64,000 nucleotides of DNA from Gemmatimonadota bacterium (GCA_036679645.1 JAZDCY010000033.1:4387-68386), one strand, 5' to 3'. Counted from the stretch's first letter, positions 14,032 through 40,213 are shown. Notes: generated by a model not told the origin, from the letters alone. Program-made: numbers and translations.

Positions 14032-14769
14032 GTGGTCACGATGCGCCGCACCGAATCGGACAGCCTCGATCGATCTCACGAACGACAACGCGCCACAGAT
14101 TCTCAAAGCGAGACGCGGCGGCAGTTGGAGCGAGCGTGGCGGGGGCAGGTCGCCGACGCCTCGAACGCGCTGAACAATCGGCTCGCCGCTGTTCGCAGCC
14201 TGGTCAAACAGGTCGACCGGTCCCGGATGAATCGATCGCAGGTGAGCGACCTTGACCAAATCGACACCGAGATTCAACACGCTAACGACATCATGGCCGA
14301 ATTGCTATACGGGGTCAGCGGCTTTACGCCCGGCACCGTCCCGCCCACGTTGGAACTATTGCATGAGGGTACCGTGCGGCCGGCGGACATCTTGGTCGTC
14401 GAAGACGACGTGAGCAATCGTGAGGTGATCACGCGCCTGTTCCAACGACTTGGGCACCGGGTGATCCCGGCGCGTGACGGCCTCGACGCGTTCGAGGCGA
14501 TGGACCTCACTGCGTTCGATTGCGTCATCTGCGATATCCGCATGCCGGGCTTGGGCGGGGGAGGGCTGTACCGCCAGGCGGAAGAACGGCACCCGCAGCT
14601 CGCCAGCCGGTTCGTGTTCGTGACGGGCGACTACGGGCGGCCGGATACGTACGAATTCGTGACGAACACCGGGTGCCTCGTGGTCCCGAAGCCGTACGAG
14701 ATCGACGAACTCCTCGGCGCCGTCGCCAAGACACTCCAAACGCGCAATCTCGGTCCAACCTCGCAGTGA
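14032..14769 (+). CDS. Response regulator (receiver domain) with an N-terminal HisKA/phosphotransfer-like helical region
   Basis: C-terminal receiver ILVVEDD...DCVICDIRMPG...VVPKP. The last 8 codons or so lie inside a copy of the island repeat core. Confidence 0.8.
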   Translation: MVTMRRTESDSLDRSHERQRATDSQSETRRQLERAWRGQVADASNALNNRLAAVRSLVKQVDRSRMNRSQVSDLDQIDTEIQHANDIMAELLYGVSGFTPGTVPPTLELLHEGTVRPADILVVEDDVSNREVITRLFQRLGHRVIPARDGLDAFEAMDLTAFDCVICDIRMPGLGGGGLYRQAEERHPQLASRFVFVTGDYGRPDTYEFVTNTGCLVVPKPYEIDELLGAVAKTLQTRNLGPTSQ

Positions 14770-14771
14770 GC
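14739..14771 (+). repeat. Isolated 33-nt core of the island repeat (AACGCGCRATCTCGGTCCAAYCTCGCAGTGAGC)
   Basis: 31/33 identical to the core found at about 21822, 22648, 23086 and 24256. Supplies the codons TRNLGPTSQ and the stop of the response regulator. Confidence 0.6.
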
Positions 14772-15935: not shown

Positions 15936-18283
15936 TTACGTGCGCAGCGCCTCGAGCACCTCCGCCGTAAACGGATTCTCACCGCGGCGAAGCGCTTCGA
16001 TCCAGCCCAGGCGCTGTGTCCGAGCCTCGTTATTCGATGTCCCTGCCACAAAGGCTTCAAAGTCTACAATAGCTCCCGCAAGATCGCCGGTGAGTGCCCG
16101 GGCTAGCCCGCGGCTGTCCCTGACGTTGCCATTATCAGGAGCAAGCGCCACGGCCTGTTCGCAGGCCGTCATGACGTCGCCGGCATGCCCCAACAGGCTA
16201 CCGTTCCAGCAGAGCGTGTTCCAATAGCCGGCGTTGTCCGGGTCGAGCTCGGCCAGTCGCCTGAACGTAGCCAGCACCCGAAGCACGGTGGCCTCTGTGC
16301 TGTCGAAAATGACAGCCATGTCGGCCAGCTCTGAGGCTAAAGCGCTCGGTATTCACAAGCAGAGAGTCAGCGGCGTCCAGAACCCTGCCGGCGAAGTCTG
16401 CAGGTTCTGCCGCCCCCGCGTCGAGAGCGGCAGTCACAATCAATCCGGTAGCACACTGCTCCATCGACGGGCTAGCGGGATACTCCCTGATGTCTTTCGT
16501 GATACGGTTCACCACATCAGCACGCAACGGCTTGGGGCTCATCATACCACATAACATGGTTCGCTCGATGATATTTGTCGGCTCGAGGAACTCGCTCGCC
16601 TTTGTCCAGTCTCCGTGTACCAGGTAGAGACTGAGCGTTGCACCGCCGTATTCGAGCAAGAAGGGATCGAGGACGCGATCGGTAGCGAAGATGCCCGCTG
16701 CCCTGAGTGAATCCGCCACGCGTAGCGCCTCGGCGCGCCGACCCGATTTGGCGAGCAAGACCATGCGGCGCGCTGCGAGATTCTCAAACTCGGTTTCCAC
16801 GCCGAGGGAATCCGCAATCGCGAGTTCGCTGAGTGCCTTGTCGTAAGACTCCTCCAGCTCGAGCACCCGCGCCGCCCACAGATGGGCTTCCGCCACCGAG
16901 GGAGTGACGGCCAACCATCTTTCGACCCAGGTTCTGGCGACGGACAGAGCTCTGGGACGCTCCGCTTCGGTAACTGCCTGCAAGAAAATCGCGAATGTTG
17001 AGCGGTATCACTTCCAGCGTATCGCGCAAGACCGCAATGAAAGGCAAGTTGTTGGCAGGTAAGGACTCTATGTATGCAGGCAGCGAAGCGCTCTCGCGGC
17101 GCGCCGCTACCACGAGTCCCATATACCAACCGCCCGCCTTCAGATAGTTGACTACCAGGATCATGTAGCCAGCGTATTGAGACGGGTCCAGCAGCACGGC
17201 GGTCTTAGCGAGGCTGTTGGCCCTATGGAAGGAGCCGCGCATCCTCATGACCCCGTCAACCGAGTGGACAATGCCATCTATGCTCTCGAGCCAAGCGAGG
17301 GCAAGGAGCGCGTCGACATCGCTGGAATCGGCGGCCAGCAAGTCTTCGAGCTGCTCCCGTGCGGTGGCGAACTGAGCGTGATACAGCGCATCCATCGCGC
17401 GCAGAAAGCGTTGATGGCGCGGCGCGAGACGATCGGACAGCGCGACAGCGCGGCCTAGGTGACCGTAGCCCGCATGCGTCGCGTCAGAGAGGGCTCCCAG
17501 ATCCGCGAAGAGGAGCGACGCTTGCGCCAGCTTGAGGTACGCCTGTGCAAACGTGCTGTCGAGTTCTACGGCTTCCTCAAAGGCTTCCCTCGCCCGCCGC
17601 ATCTCCGCCCGATTATAGTGCCGTAAACCGCGGAGATAGGCCTTCAACGCATCGAGGGATTCGGTCGACACGGACGATACGTCGACTTGCGACGCGTCCA
17701 CGCCTGCCGTCTCGAGAAGCTCCGCGGCAATCCGCTCGTAGAGTTCCAGAATCGCGTCTTCAGATTCTCCGTCTTCGCTGACGCGCACGACTGTACGACT
17801 AGTCGCTACATCGTATGCTCGGGCGGTGACTCGAATGCGATTGCCCAATCTCAGCACGTCACCCGTGACCACGGTCCATCCGCCGGTCTCCTCCGCGACG
17901 CGCCGAATCTGCTCTTCATCCATCGCTTCCTCGGGAGCGAGCCCATGACGTCGCTGGGCGAGACGGAGACGTTCATCGGAAACAACCGAAACCTCTTGCC
18001 ACCGGCTCAGAGCCTCACCAAGCATCACGGGAGCTAGTGCCAGCCAGTCGTCTTCGGGAATCGCTCTGACATTACGAAACGGCAGCACCAGGAAGCTGCG
18101 GGCGCGCACGTCTTGCGCCGGGGGGTCGTTACGAGTCACAACGGCGGGTCGTCTTACGGCTGCATCGCATGGAGGGGGCGTGCCGTCAGCGCACTGGGCG
18201 CGGAGAGCAACCGGCAGCAGCGCCGCCAACAGCGACAAGGCGAGGATGAGTTGAAGCAGGCGCGCAGAGCGGTGCGTGTTCAT
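15936..18283 (-). pseudogene. Large secreted TolB-like N-terminal domain plus TPR-repeat protein, split by two 1-nt frameshifts
   Basis: ORFs 16784..18412, 16198..16983 and 15936..16319 are contiguous pieces of one protein (start MNTHRSARLLQL at 18283). Frame changes occur near 16985 (at an A/T run) and near 16330-16370. The out-of-frame tails are Arg/Gly-rich nonsense. Confidence 0.7.
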
Positions 18284-18811: not shown

Positions 18812-19020
18812 CTCCGAGTCTAGGGACGATTCTCTGGTTGGCGGATACTCGCCCTTGTAGGCGGACTTGCAGGTGCTACCGTCGGGTGGCTCAGCGGTCT
18901 CATCGTCGGGCGCGCGTCCAGCAGGACGTCAGTGCGGCGGCGGTGCCATCTTCGGCCACCGAAGGCAAAGTAGACTAATATTATCGCCTATTATATCCAG
19001 CAGGCTTGAAGCCGCAAGTT

Positions 19021-19125
19021 GCTACACCCCGTTCGTGACATGGCGAACGCGCTGGGCGACGGTAACCAATGAGATCAATGCCTCGCGATGCTACCGCACT
19101 ACTGGTATTGGGGAACCCCCGATCG
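19021..19125 (+). repeat. Partial or disrupted copy of the island repeat
   Basis: GCTACACCCCGTTCGTGACATGGCGAACGCGCTGGGCG and GATGCTACCGCACT match the internal parts of the copies at 21.7, 22.5 and 24.1 kb. A degenerate left arm (CTTGTAGGCGGACTTGCAG) lies at about 18853-18880. Confidence 0.6.
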
Positions 19126-19607: not shown

Positions 19608-19806
19608 GGCGACCTCACGGGAGGAGTGCAACGATAGGGTACTGTGGCCGAATCAACAATTCTGTGGCGCGGGACGCGCACCCACGATGGGGCTCGTCCC
19701 GGTGGCTAAGTGAGGGTGGGGCGCGACTACATCGGCGTGCATGCCTGACGGTGGGAGCGGAACTCGGCACATTTACCATGTATTACGTTATACGTTATAT
19801 TCCGCC

Positions 19807-20103
19807 GTGATCCGAAGCTTCGCGACCCCTGGCACCCGGGACGTCTTCGATGCCACCGACTCCAAAGCGGCGCGGCGCGCGTGCCCGACAAGCCTCTGGA
19901 AGATCGCTCGCCGCAAGCTGGACCAGTTGAATCAGGCCCATGCGCTCGAGGATCTCCGAGCACCGCTGGCCAATCGACTGGAGAAGCTGAAAGGCGACCG
20001 GGCAGGACAGCACAGCATCCGGATTAACGACCAGTATCGCGTCTGCTTTGGGTGGACCGAGCACGAACCCGAAGATGTGGAGATCGTAGACTACCACCGT
20101 TGA
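19807..20103 (+). CDS. higB: HigB-type toxin (RelE/ParE superfamily, plasmid maintenance system killer)
   Basis: GTG start gives VIRSFATPGTRDVF... and ...QHSIRINDQYRVCFGW...VEIVDYH, typical of HigB. Followed 13 nt later by higA. Confidence 0.8.
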   Translation: MIRSFATPGTRDVFDATDSKAARRACPTSLWKIARRKLDQLNQAHALEDLRAPLANRLEKLKGDRAGQHSIRINDQYRVCFGWTEHEPEDVEIVDYHR

Positions 20104-20116
20104 GCGAGGTTGCTTC

Positions 20117-20449
20117 ATGACGACGTTGCCCAGACACCGACCGCCAACCCACCCGGGTGAGATGCTCCTTGAGGAGTTCTTGGTACCTCTCGACATGAGC
20201 CAGTCAGAACTCGCGGACCGGATCCATGTGTCTTATCCACGCGTGAATGAGCTCGTGAACGGAAAGCGAGGTGTCACGCCGGACACCGCTCTACGCCTCG
20301 CGAAGCTGCTCGGGACAACACCAGAATTCTGGCTGAACGGGCAGCAGAACTGGGACTTGTGGCATGCCGTGCACGCGCCCCAAGCAGTCGAACTTCGGGA
20401 GATCCGTCCGGTGTCACGCCGCTCGCGGAGCAAAGCGAGTTTCGCCTAA
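20117..20449 (+). CDS. higA: HigA antitoxin, XRE-family HTH
   Basis: HPGEMLLEEFL...MSQSELADRIHVSYPRVNELVNGKRGVTPDTALRLAKLLGTTPEFWLN is the HigA signature. The stop TAA is embedded in the motif GCCTAAC. Confidence 0.85.
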   Translation: MTTLPRHRPPTHPGEMLLEEFLVPLDMSQSELADRIHVSYPRVNELVNGKRGVTPDTALRLAKLLGTTPEFWLNGQQNWDLWHAVHAPQAVELREIRPVSRRSRSKASFA

Positions 20450-20454
20450 CTAGT

Positions 20455-20493
20455 CGCTCAGACCTGCAAGATGCATGAAAAAAGTTCGGTCAC
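20455..20493 (+). repeat. 39-nt direct repeat, copy A (CGCTCAGACCTGCAAGATGCATGAAAAAAGTTCGGTCAC)
   Basis: 38/39 identical to 25791-25829. Fills the gap between the convergent higA and PAS genes. Confidence 0.8.
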
Positions 20494-20494
20494 G

Positions 20495-21157
20495 TTACCG
20501 TTCTCGTTCTTGTAGGGGATCGTCCGTCGTGTCCGTATAGTGGGCTGCTTCACATGCAGGACAAATCCCGTGTGAGAACCGCGCCTCAGAGTGCTGACTC
20601 ACGTAGGTCTCAAGTTTCTGCCAGAATCCCTTGTCATTCCTGATGCTCTTGCAGTGCGAACAGATAGGCACGAGGCCCTTCAGCGTCTTGATATTGTCCA
20701 GGGCATGCTGCAGAGCGCGGTTCGCTTGCTCCAACTCCGCTGTTCTCTGCTCTAATCCTACCTCCGCCTTCCTGCGCAGCGTAATATCCTGAACAAGACA
20801 GCTCACGCCGATGATTCTTCCATTACCATCAGCGGTAATAGGGTGATAGTTGTGCATGAAGGTCCGCCGCACGCCTATTTGTGCCGGGGTCTCCGCCTCG
20901 ATCGTTCCCTCGATGATGGATGTGCGCGTCTTCATCACCATGCGCAGTTGAGCCTCGATTCCAGCCGCAACATTGGGAATCACTTCGCCCACCGTTCGTC
21001 CCAGGTGCTTCTCGACAGGCAAACCGTTCAGCCGGGCCAGCCATCGGTTGATGTACAGGTAGCGCAGGTCGGTGTCGAAGTAACAAAGGCCTACCGCCGC
21101 GTCGTCATAGGCGCAACGAAGGATCGCCTCGGAAGGGCGCTTCGCGGGCTCGCTCAT
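20495..21157 (-). CDS. PAS domain protein with a C-terminal Cys/His-rich LVPICSHCKSIRNDKGFW...FSHGICPAC module
   Basis: 220 aa: N-terminal PAS fold, a coiled-coil linker, then the conserved Cys-rich tail seen in many PAS sensor proteins. Confidence 0.75.
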   Translation of the reverse strand: MSEPAKRPSEAILRCAYDDAAVGLCYFDTDLRYLYINRWLARLNGLPVEKHLGRTVGEVIPNVAAGIEAQLRMVMKTRTSIIEGTIEAETPAQIGVRRTFMHNYHPITADGNGRIIGVSCLVQDITLRRKAEVGLEQRTAELEQANRALQHALDNIKTLKGLVPICSHCKSIRNDKGFWQKLETYVSQHSEARFSHGICPACEAAHYTDTTDDPLQERER

Positions 21158-21270
21158 ACGTCTTCACTCCTAGCAACGTGTCAATAGGGATTTGCTTTCC
21201 CCGGCTGGCCAAGCGCTTCAAAGATAGCATGCCGCCAGTTTGACGTGATCCTGCGGGTGTGGAAGTGGAA

Positions 21271-21693
21271 CTACGACTGCTCCCCGAACGCCGCGATTTC
21301 TTGGGCGTACGCCGAATCGAACTCCAGAGCCTCAACTAGTCGCGAAAGCTCGTTCGCGTAGGCTGGATTCGCCCCGGTTAGGCCCAATTCGCGAGGCAGG
21401 TTGTAACAGTACGCCTCGACAACCTGGTTGCTTGCCAACAGCGCCACCTGGACGCGCTCTCGTTTGTACGCGCGAACACTCGGTTCCGAGTAGAGCGCAT
21501 GAGCTTCTTGCTCCGAGAGCTCCATCACGATTCCATAGGCCCGACTCGAAGCGGACGGCAACAATGTCGCTCGCTCGCCGATGTGGATTCGGTAGTCGGA
21601 AAGCACCGCTGGCCCAATAGTTTCAGGGTGAAAACCCTTCTCGGCGAGAAGAGTCCGATCCATGAAGAGGCCGTAAAAGAAAATCTTGCTCAT
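21271..21693 (-). CDS. Gamma-glutamylcyclotransferase / AIG2-like family protein
   Basis: MSKIFFYGLFMDRTLLAEKGF... carries the YGxL/F motif of the GGCT fold. 140 aa. Confidence 0.75.
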   Translation of the reverse strand: MSKIFFYGLFMDRTLLAEKGFHPETIGPAVLSDYRIHIGERATLLPSASSRAYGIVMELSEQEAHALYSEPSVRAYKRERVQVALLASNQVVEAYCYNLPRELGLTGANPAYANELSRLVEALEFDSAYAQEIAAFGEQS

Positions 21694-21716
21694 AGGTGTC
21701 GAGCTGTCCGCCTAAC

Positions 21717-21950
21717 TAGTAATTGGACTGCATATGTCCATATGCACCCCACTCGCGAGAAGGCGCTGGGGCGAGGGGACTTCGTTACTAACCGCACTCC
21801 TGGTACTGGGAAGCCCCTGAACACGCGATCTCGGTCCAATCTCGCAGTGAGCGGTATCTTCTAAGGCGAGCCGCGCGATGACGGGGCACAACCCAACGAC
21901 TTCCTTACCGCACGTTAGTGCCCGCCAACTGCAAGCGCGTGTTTGGCGCC
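21717..21950 (+). repeat. Island repeat, full copy 1 (core 21717-21868 plus right-hand hairpin extension)
   Basis: Runs TCCGCCTAACTAGTAATTGGACTGCAT ... GAACACGCGATCTCGGTCCAATCTCGCAGTGAGCGGTATCTTCTAAGGCG, then GGCACAACCCAACGACTTCC...GCCCGCCAACTGCAAGCGCG...TTGGCG (hairpin). On the minus strand GTTAGGCGG lies 22 nt upstream of the GGCT ATG. Confidence 0.8.
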
Positions 21951-21952
21951 CG

Positions 21953-22186
21953 CTAGAACTCCCGCTTCTTCATTTCTGAGAAGAAGCTTTGCCGTTCTGT
22001 ATCCTCGTCCGTGTCCAGAGGCAAAGTGTCGTCGTGCCGACGCCGCGCCTTTCCTTTCGACTTGGCAGCCTTCGCAGCGTTCTTTCTCACCAAAGCGGCC
22101 AACTTCTTATCATCGCTGGTTGACATCGTTGCCACTCCAAACAGTCTCGAGGTGGATCCGTCTGCGGTGTGCGGTGCTCCCAACAT
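21953..22186 (-). CDS. Small Lys/Asp-rich hypothetical protein
   Basis: 77 aa ORF. The likely real start is MSTSDDKK at 22126 (57 aa). No family recognised. Confidence 0.4.
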   Translation of the reverse strand: MLGAPHTADGSTSRLFGVATMSTSDDKKLAALVRKNAAKAAKSKGKARRRHDDTLPLDTDEDTERQSFFSEMKKREF

Positions 22187-22330
22187 CCCTACGTATCATT
22201 TGCGGGCGACGTGCCCGTGAGCAACTTGCGTAGACTGAACGTGCACAATCCTCCAAAGCTCACTACTCAACGACCTCCTTACGCCACGGACGCGCCCGCC
22301 AGTCTGCAAGCACTTAACTTGGCGGGCCGC

Positions 22331-22504
22331 TCACTGGTAGCGGATCGCATAGTAGATGACGTAGACCCACGACAAGAAACCATGGATTATCGCCCACAGA
22401 ATTGACTTGTTGGCACTCCACGAGATGGCAATGGCCAGCGCTGCGCCGAAGCCGATGCCTGCCTTGGCGGCGTCCTTGGAGCCACTCCCCTTCTTTTCGC
22501 TCAT
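22331..22504 (-). CDS. Small (57 aa) two-TM membrane protein, below the ORF-track cutoff
   Basis: Own translation: MSEKKGSGSKDAAKAGIGFGAALAIAISWSANKSILWAIIHGFLSWVYVIYYAIRYQ. ATG at 22504, stop TGA at 22331-22333. Confidence 0.6.
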   Translation of the reverse strand: MSEKKGSGSKDAAKAGIGFGAALAIAISWSANKSILWAIIHGFLSWVYVIYYAIRYQ

Positions 22505-22523
22505 CCGGTACCCCCTGAGGCGG

Positions 22524-22695
22524 TCCGCCTAACTTGTAATTGGACTGCATACCTCCATAATGCTACATCGCGCTCGCGACATAGCGAACGCGCTGGGCGG
22601 GAGTAGCCTTCCTTACCACCGCACTCCGGCTATAGGGAACCCCTGAACGCGCGATCTCGGTCCAATCTCGCAGGGAGCGGTACCTTCTAAAGGCG
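22524..22695 (+). repeat. Island repeat, full copy 2
   Basis: Runs TCCGCCTAACTTGTAATTGGACTGCAT...GCTACATCGCGCTCGCGACATAGCGAACGCGCTGGGCG...GAACGCGCGATCTCGGTCCAATCTCGCAGGGAGCGGTACCTTCTAAAGGCG. On the minus strand GTTAGGCGG lies 24 nt upstream of the ATG at 22504. Confidence 0.8.
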
Positions 22696-22803
22696 AGCCG
22701 TGCATCAGTAGTCGGCGTTGCTGTACTGCAGAAGGGCCGCACAACAATGCGACTGGTGGTCAGTGTAGGATGAGCCGTACCTCTTTGAACCAGAGGGAGT
22801 CCG

Positions 22804-23010
22804 ATGGACGCTGACAAGAAAGCCAAGATCGCCCGGGTACTTGGCTACATCTTGCTGGCGGTCGGCGTGCTGAATCTCACGCTTGCCGGTGTGCAATTGG
22901 CCCGGGATCGGACCCAGGAGGGGTCACTTTTCGTGACTGGTTTCGTGGCCCTCGGGATGGGCATCATCATGGTTTCCCGAGGGAGGCAGAAGCCCACGCC
23001 CCGAGCTTAG
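22804..23010 (+). CDS. Small two-TM membrane protein, hypothetical
   Basis: 68 aa, MDADKKAKIARVLGYILLAVGVLNLTLAG...FVALGMGIIMV. Confidence 0.5.
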   Translation: MDADKKAKIARVLGYILLAVGVLNLTLAGVQLARDRTQEGSLFVTGFVALGMGIIMVSRGRQKPTPRA

Positions 23011-23029
23011 CGACGTGGTTGGCGTAGGG

Positions 23030-23208
23030 ATGAGATCAATGCAACGCGATGCTACCGCACTCCGAATATTGGCAAGGTTATGCACGCGCGATCTCGGTCC
23101 AATCTCGCAGTGAGCGGCATGTTCTAAGGCGGAACGAGCGGCGGGGCGCCGTGCCGCCCAAGCACACAACGCAACAGCTTCCCCACACGAACACGTCTGT
23201 CGTTGTGG
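23030..23208 (+). repeat. Island repeat, partial copy (right half plus right extension)
   Basis: Runs GAGATCAATGCAACGCGATGCTACCGCACT...CGCGCGATCTCGGTCCAATCTCGCAGTGAGCGGCATGTTCTAAGGCGGAACGAGCG...GCACACAACGCAACAGCTTCCCC. Confidence 0.7.
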
Positions 23209-23222
23209 ATCCCCCGATCGTC

Positions 23223-23290
23223 TTATTGATCCACGGGCACGGGAGTCGGAGCATCGCTGGAAAAGCTGACCGAGGCGATGAACCACTCGC
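23223..23290 (-). pseudogene. Remnant: duplicated 3' end of a SnoaL-like gene
   Basis: TTATTGATCCACGGGCACGGGAGTCGGAGCATCGCTGGAAAAGCTGACCGAGGCGATGAACCACTCGC is near-identical to 19128-19195. It encodes ...EWFIASVSFSSDAPTPVPVDQ plus the stop and has no upstream body. Confidence 0.7.
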
Positions 23291-23293
23291 GGG

Positions 23294-23447
23294 GCCCTGC
23301 GCGCGGTGTATCACGGTAGTGCGCACCGGACCGTGCTCAAGGAGTTTACCCGCGCCTACCAGAGTCTGGTCGAGGACTCCACGCGTGTGATGCTCCGGCT
23401 CAAAGCATTGCTCCGCGCCCGGGGGATCAAGACGCCCGGTACCGAGC
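23294..23447 (+). pseudogene. Internal fragment resembling an IS110-family (DEDD) transposase
   Basis: Own translation: ALRAVYHGSAHRTVLKEFTRAYQSLVEDSTRVMLRLKALLRARGIKTPGTERL. This resembles the helical linker region of IS110-like transposases. No start and no catalytic domain are present. Confidence 0.45.
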
Positions 23448-23486
23448 GCTTGCTAGGTGGCACCACAGTGTATTACATTGTATGAC

Positions 23487-23708
23487 ATGAAATCTACAGT
23501 ACTGACCATTCGCCTTGATCGCGATCTCGAGCGCCAACTCCGACGCATCGCCCGTCGGACCGGCCGTAGCCGTAGCGACATCGTTCGAGAGGCGCTCCGA
23601 CGCCAGCTCGCGCTGGCGCAGTTCGAGGACATCCGCCGCCGCATCATGCCGCTCGCTGAGGCTCGCGGATACCTCACCGATGAAGACGTCTTCCGCGATG
23701 TCTCTTGA
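23487..23708 (+). CDS. Ribbon-helix-helix (CopG/VapB-like) antitoxin
   Basis: MKSTVLTIRLDRDLERQLRRIARRTGRSRSDIVREALRRQL is an RHH signature. Overlaps the PIN gene by 4 nt. Confidence 0.75.
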   Translation: MKSTVLTIRLDRDLERQLRRIARRTGRSRSDIVREALRRQLALAQFEDIRRRIMPLAEARGYLTDEDVFRDVS

Positions 23709-24106
23709 GGGTGGCCCTCGACACGAACATCCTCGTCGCCGCCGTGGCGACCCGCGGCCTCTGCGCCGACCTTCTTCGTGTCGTCCTCGCGGAGCATCAA
23801 CTGATTCTCGGCCAAACAGTGCAGCGCGAGCTGCGCCGTGTTCTCCGATCGAAGCTCCGACTTGCTCCAGAAGTCATCACCGAATACGACGCATTCCTTG
23901 CGCGGCACGCAGTGCTTGCGGCGGCCACGGAGCCGGCCCCGATCTCCGTTCGAGATGCCTCCGACGAGCGCGTACTTGCGGAGGCCCTGGCAGGTGAGGC
24001 AGACGTTCTCGTAACCGGAGATCAAGATCTTCTCAGCGTCGCGAGCGAGTCTCCGATACTGATTGTCGATCCGCGGGGGCTGTGGGAATCGCTGCGCGGG
24101 AGATGA
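23705..24106 (+). CDS. PIN domain toxin (VapC-like)
   Basis: VALDTNILVAA...DERVLAEALAGEADVLVTGDQDLL carries the PIN acidic residues. TTG/GTG start at 23705/23711. Confidence 0.8.
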   Translation: MRVALDTNILVAAVATRGLCADLLRVVLAEHQLILGQTVQRELRRVLRSKLRLAPEVITEYDAFLARHAVLAAATEPAPISVRDASDERVLAEALAGEADVLVTGDQDLLSVASESPILIVDPRGLWESLRGR

Positions 24107-24128
24107 CCAGGGACACGCATCCGGCGGT

Positions 24129-24303
24129 GCCACCTAGCTTGTAGTTGGACTGACCACCATATCGCCAGATGCTACACCCCGCTCGCGACATAGCAAACGC
24201 GCGGGGCGAGGGGAACTTCGATGCCACCGCACTCCGGATATCGGGAAGCCCTGAACGCGCGATCTCGGTCCAATCTCGCAGTGAGCGCTACCTTCTAAGG
24301 CGG
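24129..24303 (+). repeat. Island repeat, full copy 3
   Basis: Runs GCCACCTAGCTTGTAGTTGGACTGACC...GCTACACCCCGCTCGCGACATAGCAAACGCGCGGGGCG...GAACGCGCGATCTCGGTCCAATCTCGCAGTGAGCGCTACCTTCTAAGGCGG, followed by the palindrome GCGCCTAAAGGCGC. Confidence 0.8.
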
Positions 24304-24382
24304 AACGAGCGCCTAAAGGCGCGTGCGGTGGGTGGCGTTTTGGTGGGAACACGAAGCCAGATCCCTCTTTCCAGAGGCACAG

Positions 24383-25291
24383 ATGGCTGTACCGGATTTC
24401 CAGAGCTGGTTCTTACCTCTCCTGAAGCGGGTAGCCGACGGAGAGAGTCACCGCCTGTCAGACCTCTACGAGGAGTTGGCGCAGGATCTTGACCTCTCGG
24501 ACGAGGACCGCGCGGAAGAGTTGCCAAGCGGCAAGCAACTCACGTATCGCAACCGCATCGGTTGGGCCCGTACGTATCTGAAGAAGGCAGGGCTTCTTGA
24601 GTCGCCAGCCCGAGGCGAATGCAGAATAACAAAACGTGGAATCGAGGTTCTAGCACAGGACTTGGAGCGTGTGGATGTCAAATTCCTAAAGCAGTTTCCT
24701 GAGTTCGAGAAGTTCCACACCTATAAGCCTTCCGGCCCAGGTGAGGGGGGTCCGGACGGAGAGGTCGTCAGCGCCACGCCAGAAGAACTTCTCGAGCAGT
24801 CGCACGGGGCCCTCAAAGACAACGTCACGCAAGAGCTTTTGGAGCGCGTGAAGGCAGCACCCCCATCGTTCTTTGAGTCCCTAGTAGTGGATCTCCTTCT
24901 ACGCATGGGTTACGGCGGTTCACGCGAGGATGCCGGCAAGATCGTCGGCCGCTCCGGTGACGGTGGCGTCGATGGAGTGATCAACGAGGATCGACTTGGT
25001 CTTGATGTGGTATACATCCAAGCGAAGCGGTGGGAAAACACGGTTGGCCGACCGGTGGTTCAGGCCTTTGCCGGTAGCTTGGAAGGAGTCCGAGCACGCA
25101 AGGGCGTACTCATTACAACGTCGGATTTCTCTTCTGAAGCGCGCCAGTACGTTTCCCAGATCGAAAAGCGCATCGTCCTGGTAACTGGCCAGCAGCTCGC
25201 GAACCTCATGTTCGAGCACAACATTGGCGTAAGCTCCGTTGCCTCGTATGAAGTGAAGAAGGTCGACACCGACTTCTTCGAGGAGGCGTAG
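24383..25291 (+). CDS. mrr: Mrr family restriction endonuclease (Mrr_N winged helix plus Mrr catalytic domain)
   Basis: Start MAVPDFQSWFLPLLKRVADG... C-terminal ...GDGGVDGVINEDRLGLDVVYIQAKRW...VLITTSDFS is typical of the Mrr catalytic domain. Confidence 0.85.
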   Translation: MAVPDFQSWFLPLLKRVADGESHRLSDLYEELAQDLDLSDEDRAEELPSGKQLTYRNRIGWARTYLKKAGLLESPARGECRITKRGIEVLAQDLERVDVKFLKQFPEFEKFHTYKPSGPGEGGPDGEVVSATPEELLEQSHGALKDNVTQELLERVKAAPPSFFESLVVDLLLRMGYGGSREDAGKIVGRSGDGGVDGVINEDRLGLDVVYIQAKRWENTVGRPVVQAFAGSLEGVRARKGVLITTSDFSSEARQYVSQIEKRIVLVTGQQLANLMFEHNIGVSSVASYEVKKVDTDFFEEA

Positions 25292-25346
25292 GCCTTCGCA
25301 CGACCCGCGCTAGGAGCTGCCGGGGGCTACGGGAGGGCACGTACCG

Positions 25347-25790
25347 TTGGGAACGACCAGCCGCATCAGAGCAACGGTTCGGGGCTGGCAGCCCGGTCAG
25401 TTCGCGATCGTTTGTCTTATCGCAATGGTGACCGAGGGTGGCCTCTACTGGGGCTATCGGGAGCTCGACGCTAGAGTCGACAGGATTGACAGATCCTGGG
25501 AACACTTGTTCGAGCTCCAGCAGCAGCGACTGCGAGATGGCTGTACATCCAGAACGGTGTCTTCGATTCCGCACAGGCGGCCACAGACTTCTTTGTCTCG
25601 GTAGTCGGCTCGACGGCAGGCAAGCAAGATGCTCGGGCGGTACGCGATCTGGGGCATGGCATTATCACACCGGTCATGGTGCTCGTGTTTGTCGGGATGC
25701 TTGTTGTGTCGTGGCAGTGGTTTGGCCGAGGGTCGCCAGGGGCAACAGCACACAAGCCTGGGCCGCCATCGACCGGAGCAGCCTAGCACA
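25347..25790 (+). pseudogene. Possible frameshifted hypothetical membrane protein
   Basis: ORF 25347..25604 (…FAIVCLIAMVTEGGLYWGYRELDARV…) appears to continue in another frame (…GIITPVMVLVFVGMLVVSWQWF…). Weak call with no family. Confidence 0.3.
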
Positions 25791-25829
25791 CGCTCAGACC
25801 CGCAAGATGCATGAAAAAAGTTCGGTCAC
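25791..25829 (+). repeat. 39-nt direct repeat, copy B (CGCTCAGACCCGCAAGATGCATGAAAAAAGTTCGGTCAC)
   Basis: 38/39 identical to 20455-20493. Both copies are preceded by a GCCTA(A/G)C-type motif. Confidence 0.8.
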
Positions 25830-25887
25830 CAAACCCAGGGAGTAGCCCCGAGAAACAGACCAAGCTAACCACTTGGCTCTCTTATAG

Positions 25888-25905
25888 TTGCCCCGCCTGG
25901 GATCG
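25888..25905 (-). repeat. 18-nt duplicate of the 3' end of tRNA-Gln (att-like scar)
   Basis: TTGCCCCGCCTGGGATCG at 25888-25905 is identical to 25982-25999 (T-arm, acceptor and 3' end of the tRNA). Confidence 0.7.
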
Positions 25906-25981
25906 CAGCCGCAGCGTCAGCAAGGCCGAGCCCCGGTGGGGCAAACGCAAAACGGCGCGGCTACCGCCGCGCCGTTTGCGA

Positions 25982-26054
25982 TTGCCCCGCCTGGGATCGA
26001 ACCAGGACTCTTCTGATCCAGAGTCAGACGTGTTGCCAGTTACACCACGGGGCA
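25982..26054 (-). tRNA. tRNA-Gln (anticodon CUG)
   Basis: Hand-folded cloverleaf: acceptor UGCCCCG/CGGGGCA (U1-A72), anticodon loop CUCUGGA, T-loop UUCGAUC. CCA is not encoded. Confidence 0.9.
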
Positions 26055-26055
26055 G

Positions 26056-26128
26056 TGGAGCTGAGGGGGCTCGAACCCCTGACCTCCTGGGTGCGATCCA
26101 GGCGCTCTCCCAACTGAGCTACAGCCCC
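26056..26128 (-). tRNA. tRNA-Ala (anticodon CGC)
   Basis: Acceptor GGGGCUG/CAGCUCC with G3-U70, A73, anticodon loop AUCGCAC, T-loop UUCGAGC. CCA is not encoded. One nucleotide separates it from tRNA-Gln. Confidence 0.9.
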
Positions 26129-26136
26129 TAAAAGCT

Positions 26137-26168
26137 AGACGCACAGACGCTCAGACGCGCAGACACGG
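26137..26168. repeat. Degenerate tandem octamer (AGACGCNC) x4
   Basis: Reads agacgcac agacgctc agacgcgc agacacgg, directly upstream (minus-strand sense) of the tRNA pair. Same word as the 27.5 kb array. Confidence 0.5.
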
Positions 26169-26323
26169 AACCCCGCCAAAGTGTCGGCGGGGCCGGTGGA
26201 AGTCAAAGCTAGAAAGGCAGTTGTGGGGGGTCAAGGCTGGTGGGAGGACCCACTTGCCAACGGGGATGGAACACCTCGGCATTCCATGCGTTATTCAAGG
26301 CACCCCATGATTCCGGAGATTCC

Positions 26324-27037
26324 ATGACGCGTACTCCCCGTCGAGGTCGGTCGGCCCTCGCCGCTCCTCTTCTCCTGGCGGGACTGGCCTGCGGAGACGA
26401 CAGCGGCTCGAACCCGCAGCCCAATGCCTCCCCCAACACCACGCCAGCCGCCCTCACCATCGTGAGCGGCAACAACCAAACGGGCACCGTTGGCCAATCA
26501 CTAAGCAGCGCCCTCGTCGTAAGCGTGAAGGATTCCGAAGGGGCGGCGTTGTCAGGCGTCAGTGTAGCATGGTCGGCCGTTACGGGTGGTGGTATGGCCA
26601 CCTCACCGACGACCAACACCAACGCGCAGGGAGAGGCCGCCACGACCTACACGCTCGGCGCCGTGGTTGGCGCCAACGAAGCGCGGGCCGCCGTCGCGGA
26701 CATGACGAATCTCAATGCGACCTTCACCGCTACCGGTGCCGCCGCACCGCCACCCCCACCCCCACCACCACCGCCGCCCCCGCCGTCGGCCAACGTCTCC
26801 ATCGAGGACAACTTCTACATGTCCAGCAACGTCACGGTCAGTAGTGGGCAAAGCGTCGCCTGGAACTGGAACGGCATGAACGCCCACAGCGTCACCTTCG
26901 ACGCGCCCATGAACGACGATTCGGGTGTCCAGAGCGCCGGGATGTTCACGGTGCAGTTCAGTAACCCGGGTACGTTCACCTACTTCTGCACCGTGCACGG
27001 GCGCGCCATCATGTCGGGCCAGGTGGTGGTGAACTAG
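26324..27037 (+). CDS. Lipoprotein: Ig-like (Big_1-type) domain, poly-Pro linker and type-1 copper cupredoxin domain
   Basis: Start MTRTPRRGRSALAAPLLLAGLACGDD (lipobox), 13 consecutive Pro residues, and C-terminal ...HSVTF...FTYFCTVHGRAIMSGQVVVN (His, Cys, His, Met ligands). Confidence 0.75.
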   Translation: MTRTPRRGRSALAAPLLLAGLACGDDSGSNPQPNASPNTTPAALTIVSGNNQTGTVGQSLSSALVVSVKDSEGAALSGVSVAWSAVTGGGMATSPTTNTNAQGEAATTYTLGAVVGANEARAAVADMTNLNATFTATGAAAPPPPPPPPPPPPPSANVSIEDNFYMSSNVTVSSGQSVAWNWNGMNAHSVTFDAPMNDDSGVQSAGMFTVQFSNPGTFTYFCTVHGRAIMSGQVVVN

Positions 27038-27132
27038 CGTGCGGCAAGACGGCGTGGACTGGCTGACGCCCAAGGGTAGGCGAGCGCGCTTGTCGGCATT
27101 AGCTTCGTGGCTACCAGACCGGAGATCGATCC

Positions 27133-27480
27133 ATGAAGCCTGTCCCAGCTCCTCTCGCCATCGCCCTGCTGCTCGTCCCGCTCGCCGGATGCGGCGACGA
27201 TACCGGCCAGAACCCACAGCCCACGCCGATCACGGTCACGGTGGCAGACAACTCCTACAGCCCGACGACCGTGACACTTCCCACGGGCACGACCGTCAAC
27301 TGGACCTGGACCGGGACCCAGCAACACGACGTGGTGTGGTCGGGGACCAATGCGCCTGCGGCAGCACCTCTTCAGGCCACCGGCACCTACCAACGCGTCT
27401 TCAACGCAACCGGCACGTTCGGATACTTCTGCTCCATTCACGTCGCGGAAGGAATGACGGGAACGATCATCATCCAGTAG
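27133..27480 (+). CDS. Cupredoxin (plastocyanin/azurin-like) lipoprotein
   Basis: Lipobox LAGCG; ...HDVVW...FGYFCSIHVAEGMTGTIIIQ. Confidence 0.8.
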   Translation: MKPVPAPLAIALLLVPLAGCGDDTGQNPQPTPITVTVADNSYSPTTVTLPTGTTVNWTWTGTQQHDVVWSGTNAPAAAPLQATGTYQRVFNATGTFGYFCSIHVAEGMTGTIIIQ

Positions 27481-27500
27481 GCAGGCAGCACACCGACAGG

Positions 27501-27563
27501 CGCTCAGACGCTCAGACGCTCAGACGCTCAGACGCTCAGACGCTCAGACGCTCAGACGCTCAG
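27501..27563. repeat. Perfect tandem octamer (CGCTCAGA), about 7.9 units
   Basis: cgctcaga repeated from 27501 to 27563, between the second and third cupredoxin genes. Confidence 0.9.
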
Positions 27564-27628
27564 TTCATGGCGCTACGCAGGGCGTGGCATACCGCAAGCA
27601 ATCAACGTGCTCTCAACAGGATTTTCTC

Positions 27629-27994
27629 ATGAATCGTGTTTCTCAGCTTTCCGCTGTTGTGGTTATTGTCGTGCTCGGTGCGTGCGGCGGCGACGACGCA
27701 CAGCAACAGCCCACCGGTCCCGGCCCATCCGGACCGACCGCGACGACGAGCGTCAACATTATCGACAACGGCTTCAGTCCGTCATCGAACAGCGCCACCG
27801 CCGGTCAGTCCGTCACGTGGAGTTGGACCGGAAACAATCCTCATAACGTCACCTTTGACGACCCGGCCATTGGGAATTCGAGCACGAAGACGAGCGGCGG
27901 GTTTACGCGGAGCTTCCCTACGGCGGGGTCGTTCACCTACTTCTGCACTGTACACGGTAGGTCGATCATGTCGGGCACGGTGACGGTGAACTAA
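27629..27994 (+). CDS. Cupredoxin lipoprotein
   Basis: Start MNRVSQLSAVVVIVVLGACGGDD; ...HNVTF...FTYFCTVHGRSIMSGTVTVN. Confidence 0.8.
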   Translation: MNRVSQLSAVVVIVVLGACGGDDAQQQPTGPGPSGPTATTSVNIIDNGFSPSSNSATAGQSVTWSWTGNNPHNVTFDDPAIGNSSTKTSGGFTRSFPTAGSFTYFCTVHGRSIMSGTVTVN

Positions 27995-38524: not shown

Positions 38525-38593
38525 CCTTACTCCGGGCGGCAGCGGCATCGGGTCGCTCGCCCGCAGCTACGAACTTTGAGGAGGGATACCAAC

Positions 38594-39385
38594 ATGAAGC
38601 GCTTTATGGTTGCAATGGTTTTCACCACGTTTGCGGCTGCCGCATGCGGCGACAGCACCGGTCTGGGAGCGGGGGAGCGCGCTGTTTCGCTGTCGTTCAC
38701 GACAACGCAACCCGCGGGTGCGGCGTTCGCCGCCACCCGTCCGTTCTTTGGTGTGACCGGCGATACGGTGGTCTCGGGCACCGACATGATCATCATCGAC
38801 CGCGTTCGCATGGTCCTGCGCGAGATAGAGCTCAAGCGGGTTGAAGATCAGTTCTGCGAAGACTCCTCTGGCGAGGGCGAAGACAACGACGACTGTGAAG
38901 AGTTCGAGATCGGGCCGTTGCTCCTCGACCTTCCGCTCAACGGAATGGTCGAGACCGAGGTCTCGGTGGTCGTGGACACCGGCACGTACGACGAGATCGA
39001 GTTCGACATCCACAAACCCAGCGACGACTCTGCGGCTGATTCCGCCTTCCGGGCTGCCAATCCGCTATTCACCGAGACGAGTATCCGCGTCGAAGGTTCG
39101 TTCAACGGACAGCCGTTCGTATACGAGACGGACCTGAACGTCGATCAGGAAATCGAGTTGACCGATCCGTTGATCGTGACGGACCAAACAGCGGCGACGA
39201 ACGTCACACTGAGCGTCGCTCTCGACGTCTGGTTCCGCGACGCGTCGGGTGCCTTGGTCGATCCCGAGACCGGGAACAAGGGCAGCGTCAACGAGAACCT
39301 CATCAAGGACAACATCAAGGACTCCTTTGAAGCATTCGAAGATGAGGATCGCGACGGCGACGACGACGACGGGGACGACTCGTAG
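38594..39385 (+). CDS. DUF4382 domain lipoprotein with an acidic C-terminal tail (paralog 1)
   Basis: Start MKRFMVAMVFTTFAAAACGD; …IDRVRMVLREIELKR…YDEIEFDIHKP…; tail EDEDRDGDDDDGDDS. Confidence 0.7.
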   Translation: MKRFMVAMVFTTFAAAACGDSTGLGAGERAVSLSFTTTQPAGAAFAATRPFFGVTGDTVVSGTDMIIIDRVRMVLREIELKRVEDQFCEDSSGEGEDNDDCEEFEIGPLLLDLPLNGMVETEVSVVVDTGTYDEIEFDIHKPSDDSAADSAFRAANPLFTETSIRVEGSFNGQPFVYETDLNVDQEIELTDPLIVTDQTAATNVTLSVALDVWFRDASGALVDPETGNKGSVNENLIKDNIKDSFEAFEDEDRDGDDDDGDDS

Positions 39386-39457
39386 TCGCTAACTTTCAGC
39401 GCATTGGTGGGGGCGCGCTTCGAGCGTCCCCACATCGCTGACATAGGAGGATCAATC

Positions 39458-40213
39458 GTGAAACGCCTAATACTCGCTATGCTCGTCGCCATTGCGGCGG
39501 CATGTACGACGACGAACGGGCCGGACAGCGAGTTTGCCAACGTCCAGGTGTCGTTCGCCACACAGCGACCGGCCGGACCTCTGGCGTCGGGCGCTTTCCT
39601 GAGCCGGGCCGCCGGAGACACCATCATCACCGGGACCGACACGCTCGTGATCGACCGCGTACAGGTGGTCTTGCGGGAAATCGAACTGAAGCGCGTGGCA
39701 ACGACGGACTGCGACAGCGCGGCCGATGAGGACGCGTGTGAGAGATTCGAAACGGGTCCGGTGCTCGTTGACCTGCCGCTCGGCAGCACGGTTCAGCAGA
39801 AGTTCGCGGTGAACGTGCCCGTCGGCAGCTACAACGAAATCGAGTTCGACATCCACAAGCCCGACGATGACGATCCGAGCGACCAGGTATTCATCGCCAA
39901 CAACCCGACGTTCGCCGCCATCAGCATACGCGTGACGGGAACGTTCAACGATACGGCATACGTGTACACGTCCGATCTCAATGTCCAGCAGGAGCTGGCT
40001 TTGGTACCCGCGCTCGAGATTACGGACATGACGGGTGCGACGAACCTCACCGTCCTGGTCGATATCGACTCGTGGTTCCGCAATGCGTCCGGTGCGGTGG
40101 TGGACCCCACCTCCGCCAACAAGGGCGGTCCCAACGAGAACCTCGTGAAGGAGAACATCAAGAACTCGGTCGAGGCGTTCGAAGATGACGATCGGGACGG
40201 CGCAGAGGACTAA
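39458..40213 (+). CDS. DUF4382 domain lipoprotein with an acidic C-terminal tail (paralog 2)
   Basis: GTG start preceded by AGGAGG; VKRLILAMLVAIAAACTT; colinear with paralog 1 (…IDRVQVVLREIELKR…YNEIEFDIHKP…). Confidence 0.7.
   Translation: MKRLILAMLVAIAAACTTTNGPDSEFANVQVSFATQRPAGPLASGAFLSRAAGDTIITGTDTLVIDRVQVVLREIELKRVATTDCDSAADEDACERFETGPVLVDLPLGSTVQQKFAVNVPVGSYNEIEFDIHKPDDDDPSDQVFIANNPTFAAISIRVTGTFNDTAYVYTSDLNVQQELALVPALEITDMTGATNLTVLVDIDSWFRNASGAVVDPTSANKGGPNENLVKENIKNSVEAFEDDDRDGAED

Follow-up and report, generated by a model that had tools for sequence, protein, structure and literature searches.

Paired 39-nucleotide repeats as probable leader copies in a non-canonical integron-type cassette array of a Gemmatimonadota bacterium

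Clusters of attC sites lacking an integron integrase (CALINs) are, by the definition used in IntegronFinder, groups of at least two attC sites that a covariance model detects within 4 kb and that have no intI; the same work describes chimeric attI/attC sites (PMC4889954). In Dehalococcoides, islands and cis-mobilizable elements make up a variable region downstream of an RNA gene, ssrA, in which fragments of the gene's 3' end recur together with conserved adjoining sequence and some units lack an integrase (PMC3146451). Here, we compare with these systems a locus in a 64,000-nucleotide (nt) stretch of DNA from a Gemmatimonadota bacterium (GCA_036679645.1, JAZDCY010000033.1:4387-68386; hereafter the window), where two near-identical 39-nt direct repeats bracket 5.3 kb of accessory genes. 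The original prediction had taken these repeats for attL and attR of a single integrated or excisable element. Between a tRNA-Gln gene (25.98 kb) and a response-regulator gene (14.77 kb) we find an integron-type cassette array that reads along the minus strand. The two 39-mers are probably copies of the closing portion of a leader, a sequence situated ahead of cassette entry points in this array.

Mobile cassettes and junction repeats

One module of the array, the GGACT gene, can be followed through other metagenomes. Its protein (21271-21693 on the minus strand) recurs with 100% identity on 12 contigs, and in the nine other metagenome loci that we retrieved (L014-L022) its DNA is 99.1-99.8% identical, with the similarity limited to window positions 21716-21245. 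In most of these nine the homology starts at the G of GTTAGGC (GCCTAAC on the plus strand). The sequence upstream of this start is different in every locus, and several loci carry there a canonical attC that ends in that very GTTAGGC. Past the stop codon, the gene's own attC is present in the other loci, starting with GCCTAAC and, in L020 and L016, ending in GTTAGGC or GTTAGAC; folded as positive controls, the attC sites of L020 and L015 form hairpins with paired ends (z scores of -5.8 and -2.6). Such a boundary, the differing upstream contexts and an attC of its own elsewhere are together the signature of an integron cassette. GGACT is thus an integron gene cassette, joined at G|TTRRRY and independently mobile; in the window, its homology breaks off at GGATCAC (21245).

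The adjacent HigBA toxin-antitoxin module likewise has an integron-type boundary and independent mobility. It matches positions 297-993 of contig L010 with 89% identity over 697 nt, and the match stops at CTAAC|TA, at window position 20452. In L010, HigBA sits between direct repeats of another family that are at least 165 nt long (23-187 and 1073-1237, 96% identical to one another) and in which a crude scan detected no canonical attC hairpin; L010 is a second array with long, non-standard junction repeats. GGACT and HigBA therefore both display the two marks of an integron cassette, a G|TT boundary at a GTTRRRY core and occurrence of the same cassette in different arrays. The crossover position demonstrated in this way, G|TT, lies 4 nt outside the 39-mer, contrary to the idea that recombination takes place within the repeat.

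Between the two 39-mers we count at least five modules, in the order Mrr with a small open reading frame (ORF), RHH-PIN with gene fragments, a gene of 68 amino acids (aa), two small genes, and GGACT with PAS, and four copies of a junction repeat of ~185 nt stand between them. This composition, together with the movement of GGACT inside the block and of HigBA beside it as separate units, speaks against the single 5.3-kb element that had been proposed. The stretch from 14.7 to 25.9 kb is rich in repeats besides the 39-mer, and its accessory genes are HigBA, PAS, GGACT, three ORFs of fewer than 80 aa, RHH-PIN, a Mrr-type gene and DUF4440; Pfam agrees with the earlier calls of PAS, GGACT, RHH-PIN, Mrr and HigBA. 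The 3' end of the DUF4440 gene recurs as an 88-nt duplicate at 23203-23290. Small ORFs and inverted toxin-antitoxin pairs are typical of chromosomal integron arrays.

The module boundaries carry short boxes. On the minus strand, the motifs GCCTAAC (followed by TAGT) and GCCTAGC (followed by ACA), which had been correctly placed in front of the two 39-mers, read GTTAGGC and GCTAGGC, and GTTAGGC fits the integron R' core GTTRRRY. They belong to a set of five co-oriented minus-strand boxes, G(T/C)TAGG(C/T), each at a module boundary and with a conserved upstream geometry, either GTCTGAG and 5/6 nt or GTCCAA(T/C) and 5 nt: GTCTGAG CGTGT GCTAGGC at 25781, GTCCAAC TACAA GCTAGGT at 24132, GTCCAAT TACAA GTTAGGC at 22527, GTCCAAT TACTA GTTAGGC at 21710, and GTCTGAG CGACTA GTTAGGC at 20444. 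The three full-length junction repeats each end in such an L-spacer-R' site and occupy attC positions; R' is retained in the junction repeats, as is a complementary L''/L' pair (ATTGGAC/GTCCAAT).

The far end of the array lies in the response-regulator gene (14041-14769), whose product in the window ends in ...TLQTRNLGPTSQ / TRNLGPTSQ. Its orthologues, 85-88% identical, end in ...TL(D/Q)R..VL(K/R)NP, and the nucleotide match with the orthologous loci L008 and L009 ends at 14736 and 14744. From the different tails and the point at which homology ends we infer that a 33-nt core of the junction repeat overwrote the 3' end of the gene. The displaced native 3' end (CTGAAGAATCCCTAG and 37 nt), absent from the window, is found directly behind a junction-repeat core in contig L003. 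Cassette insertion outside att sites, as outlined in a preprint, may be a route to the overwritten 3' end at ...GCGCG|TT...; the array-end junction differs from the insertions outlined there in that it lies inside a junction repeat and not at an R' box (bioRxiv 10.1101/2022.09.11.507474).

How, then, does the array compare with a CALIN? It shares with CALINs and sedentary chromosomal arrays small, mostly co-oriented ORFs and inverted toxin-antitoxin modules, cassettes that start at G|TTAGGC (GTTRRRY), the presence of the same cassette in near-identical form in many unrelated arrays, an array-specific repeat family between cassettes, and the lack of any integrase found nearby. It differs in that its junction repeats are ~185 nt long, fold poorly, have a degenerate R'' and failed the attC hairpin test that we used, in that two of its R' boxes begin with GCT and not GTT, and in that it is anchored on a tRNA-Gln remnant and a response-regulator 3' end. 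The term that we use for the locus, integron-type array with non-canonical junction sites, thus stops short of a certified CALIN.

Several other identities for the junction repeats were considered and set aside. As IS110 bridge-RNA ends, they have no transposase linked to them, and the one feature in favour is a 59-aa ORF (23306-23485), located between the DUF4440 fragment and RHH-PIN, with a weak match (E 0.033) to the end of the DEDD transposase domain of IS110. The targets of some members of the IS110 family include attC sites. Inspection by eye revealed neither the stems of a tRNA-like element nor a TTATG-type XerD arm of a Xer/dif site, a comparison to be taken as a lead only. Nor are the junction repeats a longer copy of the response-regulator 3' end that would mimic attP: the similarity is confined to the 33-nt core, with flanks that score no better than shuffles. 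In genomes, the unit core has a single match, a chance one inside a MarR-type coding sequence. Rfam returned no known RNA family for the junction repeat units, the leader, L003 or L010, and the leader, the unit core and the tRNA junction had no matches in IMG/VR.

Two further observations concern the interior of the block. RHH-PIN is bracketed by a perfect 13-nt inverted repeat (GCTAGGTGGCACC and GGTGCCACCTAGC; ~23451-23463 and 24127-24139), whose halves are two opposed R'-like boxes and suggest an inversion or reverse capture. Related hairpin elements follow the two small minus-strand genes (21895-21952 and 22268-22316; GCCCGCCA...TGGCGGGC, TAAGGA(G/A)GTCGTTG(A/G)GT). They contain the word CTGCAAG and end in GTTGAGT or GTTGGGT, and may be decayed attC sites.

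The 39-nt repeats and their tRNA-Gln-linked leader

The 39-mer reads CGCTCAGACC(T/C)GCAAGATGCATGAAAAAAGTTCGGTCAC. As originally reported, its two copies (Table 1) have the same orientation and agree at 38 of 39 positions; they are 5336 nt apart, their sole mismatch is the T/C at position 11 (none in copy 1, one in copy 2), and a third copy is absent from the window at up to three mismatches. Since 0 of 100 dinucleotide shuffles contained a match, chance does not explain the pair. Both copies are also present in independent short-read contigs (Logan, SRR32233994), with L001 spanning copy 1 and both of its flanks and L005 spanning copy 2 and both of its flanks, which shows that the pair did not arise in assembly: L005 agrees with the window throughout (100% identity), and the one difference in L001 is a 5-nt indel near 16333, remote from the repeat. 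The low G+C content noted earlier is real (19/39 vs 57-60% locally). When the GCCTA(A/G)C box is included, the similarity extends to ~49 nt. Its right edge is abrupt, at GGTCAC, the left edge fades across ~10 nt through the box, and the two downstream flanks, when aligned locally, are no more alike than shuffled sequences.

Upon comparison with related loci, the two copies turn out not to be equivalent. Copy 2 is the resident leader, forming the end of a conserved module of ~100 nt that is linked to tRNA-Gln, and copy 1 is a truncated second copy of this leader. Contig L007 comes from a syntenic relative with ~88% nucleotide identity across the neighbouring housekeeping genes; beside its tRNA-Gln/tRNA-Ala genes it carries, without interruption, CTGCAAGATGCATGAAAAGAATTCGGTCAC, CAAACCCAGGGAGTAGCCCC..., ...CTCTCTTATAG and TTGCCCCGCCTGGGATCG, and another gene lies on its left (L007 156-303 and window 25802-25940 are 88.5% identical). 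L007 keeps the context of copy 2 at the same place with different neighbours, which identifies copy 2 as the resident. Contig L003 (1746-1868; 88.6% identical to window 25816-25930) holds three leader copies in 3.5 kb with cassette-sized inserts between them, and two of the three are joined to tRNA-Gln 3' fragments, of 18 and 29 nt.

The truncation is visible in the sequence of the copies themselves. The first 16 nt of copy 2 (minus strand) provide the 3' half and the T-run of a terminator-like hairpin (25836-25818) that is complete there; copy 1 has only the 3' half, and its upstream sequence is unrelated to the leader. Beyond GGTCAC, 1 nt away from the PAS stop codon, copy 1 shares no further homology with copy 2 or L007. 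We also considered that copy 1 might be trailed by a deleted version of the leader and rejected the idea, its downstream flank being unrelated to that of copy 2. As a truncated copy of the longer, tRNA-Gln-linked module to which copy 2 belongs, copy 1 does not form a reciprocal attL/attR pair with it. The positions first described for the two copies hold: copy 1 exactly fills the gap between two convergent genes, higA, whose stop codon (20447-20449) falls within GCCTAAC, and PAS, whose stop codon is at 20495-20497, and copy 2 lies 58 nt before the 18-nt duplicate of the tRNA-Gln 3' end.

In the array direction, each 39-mer closes with an L-box-like heptamer, GTCTGAG, followed by a 5-6-nt spacer and an R'-type core, G(T/C)TAGGC. 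An L-like box, a spacer and R' at both copies correspond to the 'simple site' geometry of integron integrases and, by this analogy, make the leader a candidate for an attI role. Like attI, the leader is non-palindromic, stands at the head of the array with L-like box, 5-6-nt spacer and R core at the first cassette, and is conserved between relatives while the cassettes vary. Unlike attI, it has no adjacent intI, exists in two copies here and in three in the related array, and is tied to tRNA-Gln 3' fragments and terminator-like hairpins.

Alternative roles for the 39-mer and its surroundings fared less well. As a minimal attC of 57 nt (CGGTAAC...GTTAGGC), it would have L boxes that are not complementary and ends that do not pair. 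As a promoter, it has no sigma-70-like match on either strand. A 12-nt 'S' site (GTYCCGCCTWAS), whose matches at up to one mismatch are confined to 20.4-24.3 kb, was considered as the terminal inverted repeats of dif-like modules; it proved to be the R' box plus conserved flank, as well as the 3' end of many higA genes, and the dif-like idea was dropped for the integron reading. Many higA homologues do end in ...SA or ...ST before the stop codon by way of GTTCCGCCTGAC-like sequence (P0073, P0075, P0081 and P0088; L011 1170-1190 and L012 3780-3800), so that in several lineages the cassette-boundary box forms part of the higA coding sequence, even without a visible array.

The surroundings of the leader show further structure. 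Three terminator-like hairpins follow one another downstream of tRNA-Gln (25836-25818, 25877-25859 and 25970-25952, minus strand). The outermost uses the first 16 nt of copy 2 in the array direction, and the leader may insulate the array from tRNA read-through. Tandem octamers, (CAGACGCT)n, occur just upstream of tRNA-Ala (26128-26175) and again 1.3 kb away (27489-27568); similar AGACGC runs stand at the same place in L006 and L007, and the 39-mer itself opens with 9 nt (CGCTCAGAC) that match the octamer. In L006, a 188-nt insertion with inverted ends (48-235) lies between tRNA-Gln and tRNA-Ala, and the contig breaks inside the tRNA-Gln T-arm, which fits repeated tRNA 3' ends there too.

Origin of the repeat pair

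The following sequence of events would account for the two leader copies. A recombinase of the integron-integrase kind, a tyrosine recombinase encoded elsewhere and acting in trans, would insert cassettes at the R' box next to the leader. Newer cassettes would then accumulate between the leader and the older ones, pushing inward the junction of copy 1 and HigBA, which would represent an older array head. The second leader could have arisen by either of two routes. Leader modules recur in arrays, as they do three times in 3.5 kb in L003, and one of them could have been truncated by a deletion that would also have removed the attC of the PAS cassette. Alternatively, a circular block with a leader copy could have recombined with the resident leader, leader by leader.

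A number of observations weigh against reading the 39-mers as leader copies in an integron-type array. The box beside copy 2, GCTAGGC, is non-canonical and does not fit GTTRRRY. The sites at the two 39-mers fail the attC hairpin test (z of -1.4 for 20442-20503 and -0.3 for 25778-25835), with unpaired ends and no L'' complementary to GTCTGAG, and the attI-like role of the leader is an argument from analogy. In the junction repeats, R'' is degenerate, R'' and L'' are 20-23 nt apart vs ~5 nt expected, and two of the three folds (z of -2.1, +0.3 and -0.1) are no better than those of shuffles; no canonical attC emerged between 14.8 and 25.9 kb from a crude hairpin scan, which gave many false positives elsewhere. 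The ORFs scanned, those of the window apart from some distal ones, include neither an integron integrase nor any other recombinase of the tyrosine or serine class. The head of the array accordingly has no intI beside it, as a complete integron would, and on the right the tRNAs are followed by housekeeping genes in synteny with L006 and L007. Finally, leader sequence is found in three related loci only. Still, we consider leader copies at cassette entry points the probable explanation of the pair. That the locus is at present a working cassette platform anchored on tRNA-Gln, with long non-hairpin sites, a duplicable leader, an L-spacer-R' half only and its recombinase elsewhere, is improbable in our view; were it so, the 39-mer with its R' site would be an attI equivalent, and recombination from leader to leader could place copies of it in the array.

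The attL/attR reading survives in part. The repeats do mark site-specific recombination sites, and the GCCTAAC/GCCTAGC motifs singled out in the original prediction, being integron R' boxes, are their key feature; what does not hold is that they are the ends of one element. In an adapted form this reading supposes that the 5.3-kb block entered as one circular, recombinase-less composite, which would make attL and attR of the two copies and allow them to drive a new excision, with recombination either within the 39/49-nt sequence or leader by leader at the adjacent G|TT. The direct repeats indeed bracket the block exactly, the right edge of identity is sharp, 28 nt of unbroken identity lie to the right of the single mismatch, and a canonical G|TTAGGC and the older HigBA cassette come directly after copy 1; integrase-less islands bounded by att repeats are known to accrete at ssrA in Dehalococcoides (PMC3146451). 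However, the interior is a mosaic of independently mobile cassettes with junction repeats of their own, the sole crossover demonstrated falls outside the repeat, and copy 1 lacks the leader remainder, such that a simple reciprocal event would need a donor whose leader was already truncated. Neither the block nor the scanned ORFs of the window yielded a recombinase gene, no counterpart of the tRNA-derived 18-mer exists at the left end, and L007 keeps the context of copy 2 only. The sampled contigs contained no empty site, circular or other alternative junction, although these data are too thin for a strong negative. Taken together, entry as one composite block appears rather unlikely.

A scenario without any integron machinery takes the leader for the attachment-site arm of elements that target tRNA-Gln, and the 39-mers for remnants of their accretion, the older one truncated by deletion. 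It draws on the link between leader and tRNA-Gln 3' fragment (18/29 nt), which is seen in the window, in L007 and in two of the three copies in L003, and on the start of the 18-nt duplicate in the T-loop. The T-loop is a usual crossover position of integrases. Conserved element-side sequence by a direct repeat is found in the Dehalococcoides ssrA islands as well (PMC3146451), and our locus resembles these also in being a variable region downstream of an RNA gene, with repeated 3'-end fragments of that gene joined to conserved sequence and with some units that lack an integrase. But the units here are cassette-sized and not island-sized, the modules between leader copies measuring 0.3-1.5 kb and holding no integrase remnants; the 39-mer is not tRNA-derived; the tRNA-derived 18-mer is not matched at the far end of the block, the window having no second tRNA-Gln fragment left of 25888; and GGACT and HigBA are both bounded by G|TT sites of the integron type. 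Accretion at tRNA-Gln alone is, in our view, improbable. Most improbable of all is a dispersed repeat, such as a miniature inverted-repeat transposable element, or a duplication due to chance or assembly. Several other repeat families do populate the region, yet the 39-mer exists in two copies in 64 kb where chance predicts none, has no terminal inverted repeats and no target duplication, and is confirmed in both places by independent short-read contigs. The many copies at unrelated loci that would have spoken for a dispersed repeat were not found: a 23-mer core has 0 matches in 185,579 representative genomes and the JGI metagenomes, and a 20-mer core has 0 in IMG/VR.

Coordinates, other features and significance

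The features of the array are collected in Table 1.

Table 1. Positions of array features, counted from the first nucleotide of the window
Feature	Coordinates	Strand	Remarks
33-nt junction-repeat core fused to response-regulator gene	14739..14771	-	replaces last 9 codons; far end of array
Junction repeat unit B, partial and degenerate	18985..19111	-	after DUF4440 gene
HigB/HigA toxin-antitoxin module	19757..20452	+	inverted relative to array; just outside the 5.3-kb block
R' core GTTAGGC	20444..20450	-	4 nt past copy 1; start of inverted HigBA cassette; holds HigA stop codon
39-mer copy 1	20455..20493	-	truncated leader copy; sequence in array direction GTGACCGAACTTTTTTCATGCATCTTGCAGGTCTGAGCG
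PAS-domain gene	20495..21157	-	stop codon abuts copy 1
GGACT gene cassette	21245..21716	-	starts G|TTAGGC; own attC lost; fused to PAS gene region
Junction repeat unit C (~185 nt)	21703..21876	-	ends GTCCAAT TACTA GTTAGGC
Junction repeat unit D	22520..22703	-	full copy
Junction repeat unit E, partial	23030..23140	-	
RHH-PIN toxin-antitoxin module	23457..24106	+	inverted relative to array; 13-nt inverted repeats on either side
Junction repeat unit F	24123..24311	-	ends GTCCAAC TACAA GCTAGGT
Mrr-type type IV restriction enzyme gene	24383..25291	+	with doubtful small ORF to 25786, first module after copy 2
R'-like box GCTAGGC	25781..25787	-	3 nt past copy 2; C for second T
39-mer copy 2	25791..25829	-	resident copy, continuous with tRNA-Gln-linked leader
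Leader remainder ('Q arm')	25830..25887	-	kept in L007, three times in L003; two terminator-like hairpins
18-nt duplicate of tRNA-Gln 3' end, T-loop to acceptor end	25888..25905	-	same duplicate in L007 and L003
Degenerate tRNA-Gln-like remnant and intrinsic terminator of tRNA operon	25906..25981	-	inverted self-match 25927-25999
tRNA-Gln(CTG) and tRNA-Ala(CGC), array anchor	25982..26128	-	syntenic in L007

Elsewhere in the window, Rfam calls a 102-nt tRNA at 51956-52057 (minus strand) where ARAGORN calls none. It adjoins an IS1595-type transposase gene (50300-51295) and a stretch of lower G+C, and 51-53 kb may be a second variable locus. At ~16332/16333, the short-read contig from the same sample has 5 nt (TTCGC) more than the window, where a 277-aa TPR-like gene is frameshifted by their absence; the difference is either an assembly error or a real variant. 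Tandem paralogous genes of 269 aa (~72% identical DNA) and duplicated cupredoxin C-termini (38576-40213 and 26944-27993) are ordinary duplications outside the island.

Taken alone, the pair of repeats is a small structural feature of a variable island; its value lies in exposing the integron-type array. In this uncultured, Gemmatimonadota-like soil genome, whose relatives bear protein names that indicate Gemmatimonadota, the array departs from standard ones in its junctions, which are not attC-like, in the absence of a nearby integrase and in its unusual bounds. Tools that model attC might miss such arrays, and cassette traffic in soil bacteria may therefore be under-counted. The GGACT cassette is 99% identical across many soil metagenomes. 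The duplicated leader bears on the question of whether sites at the head of an array themselves move, and if the locus were a working platform, integron-like gene capture would extend to sites that attC-based finders miss.

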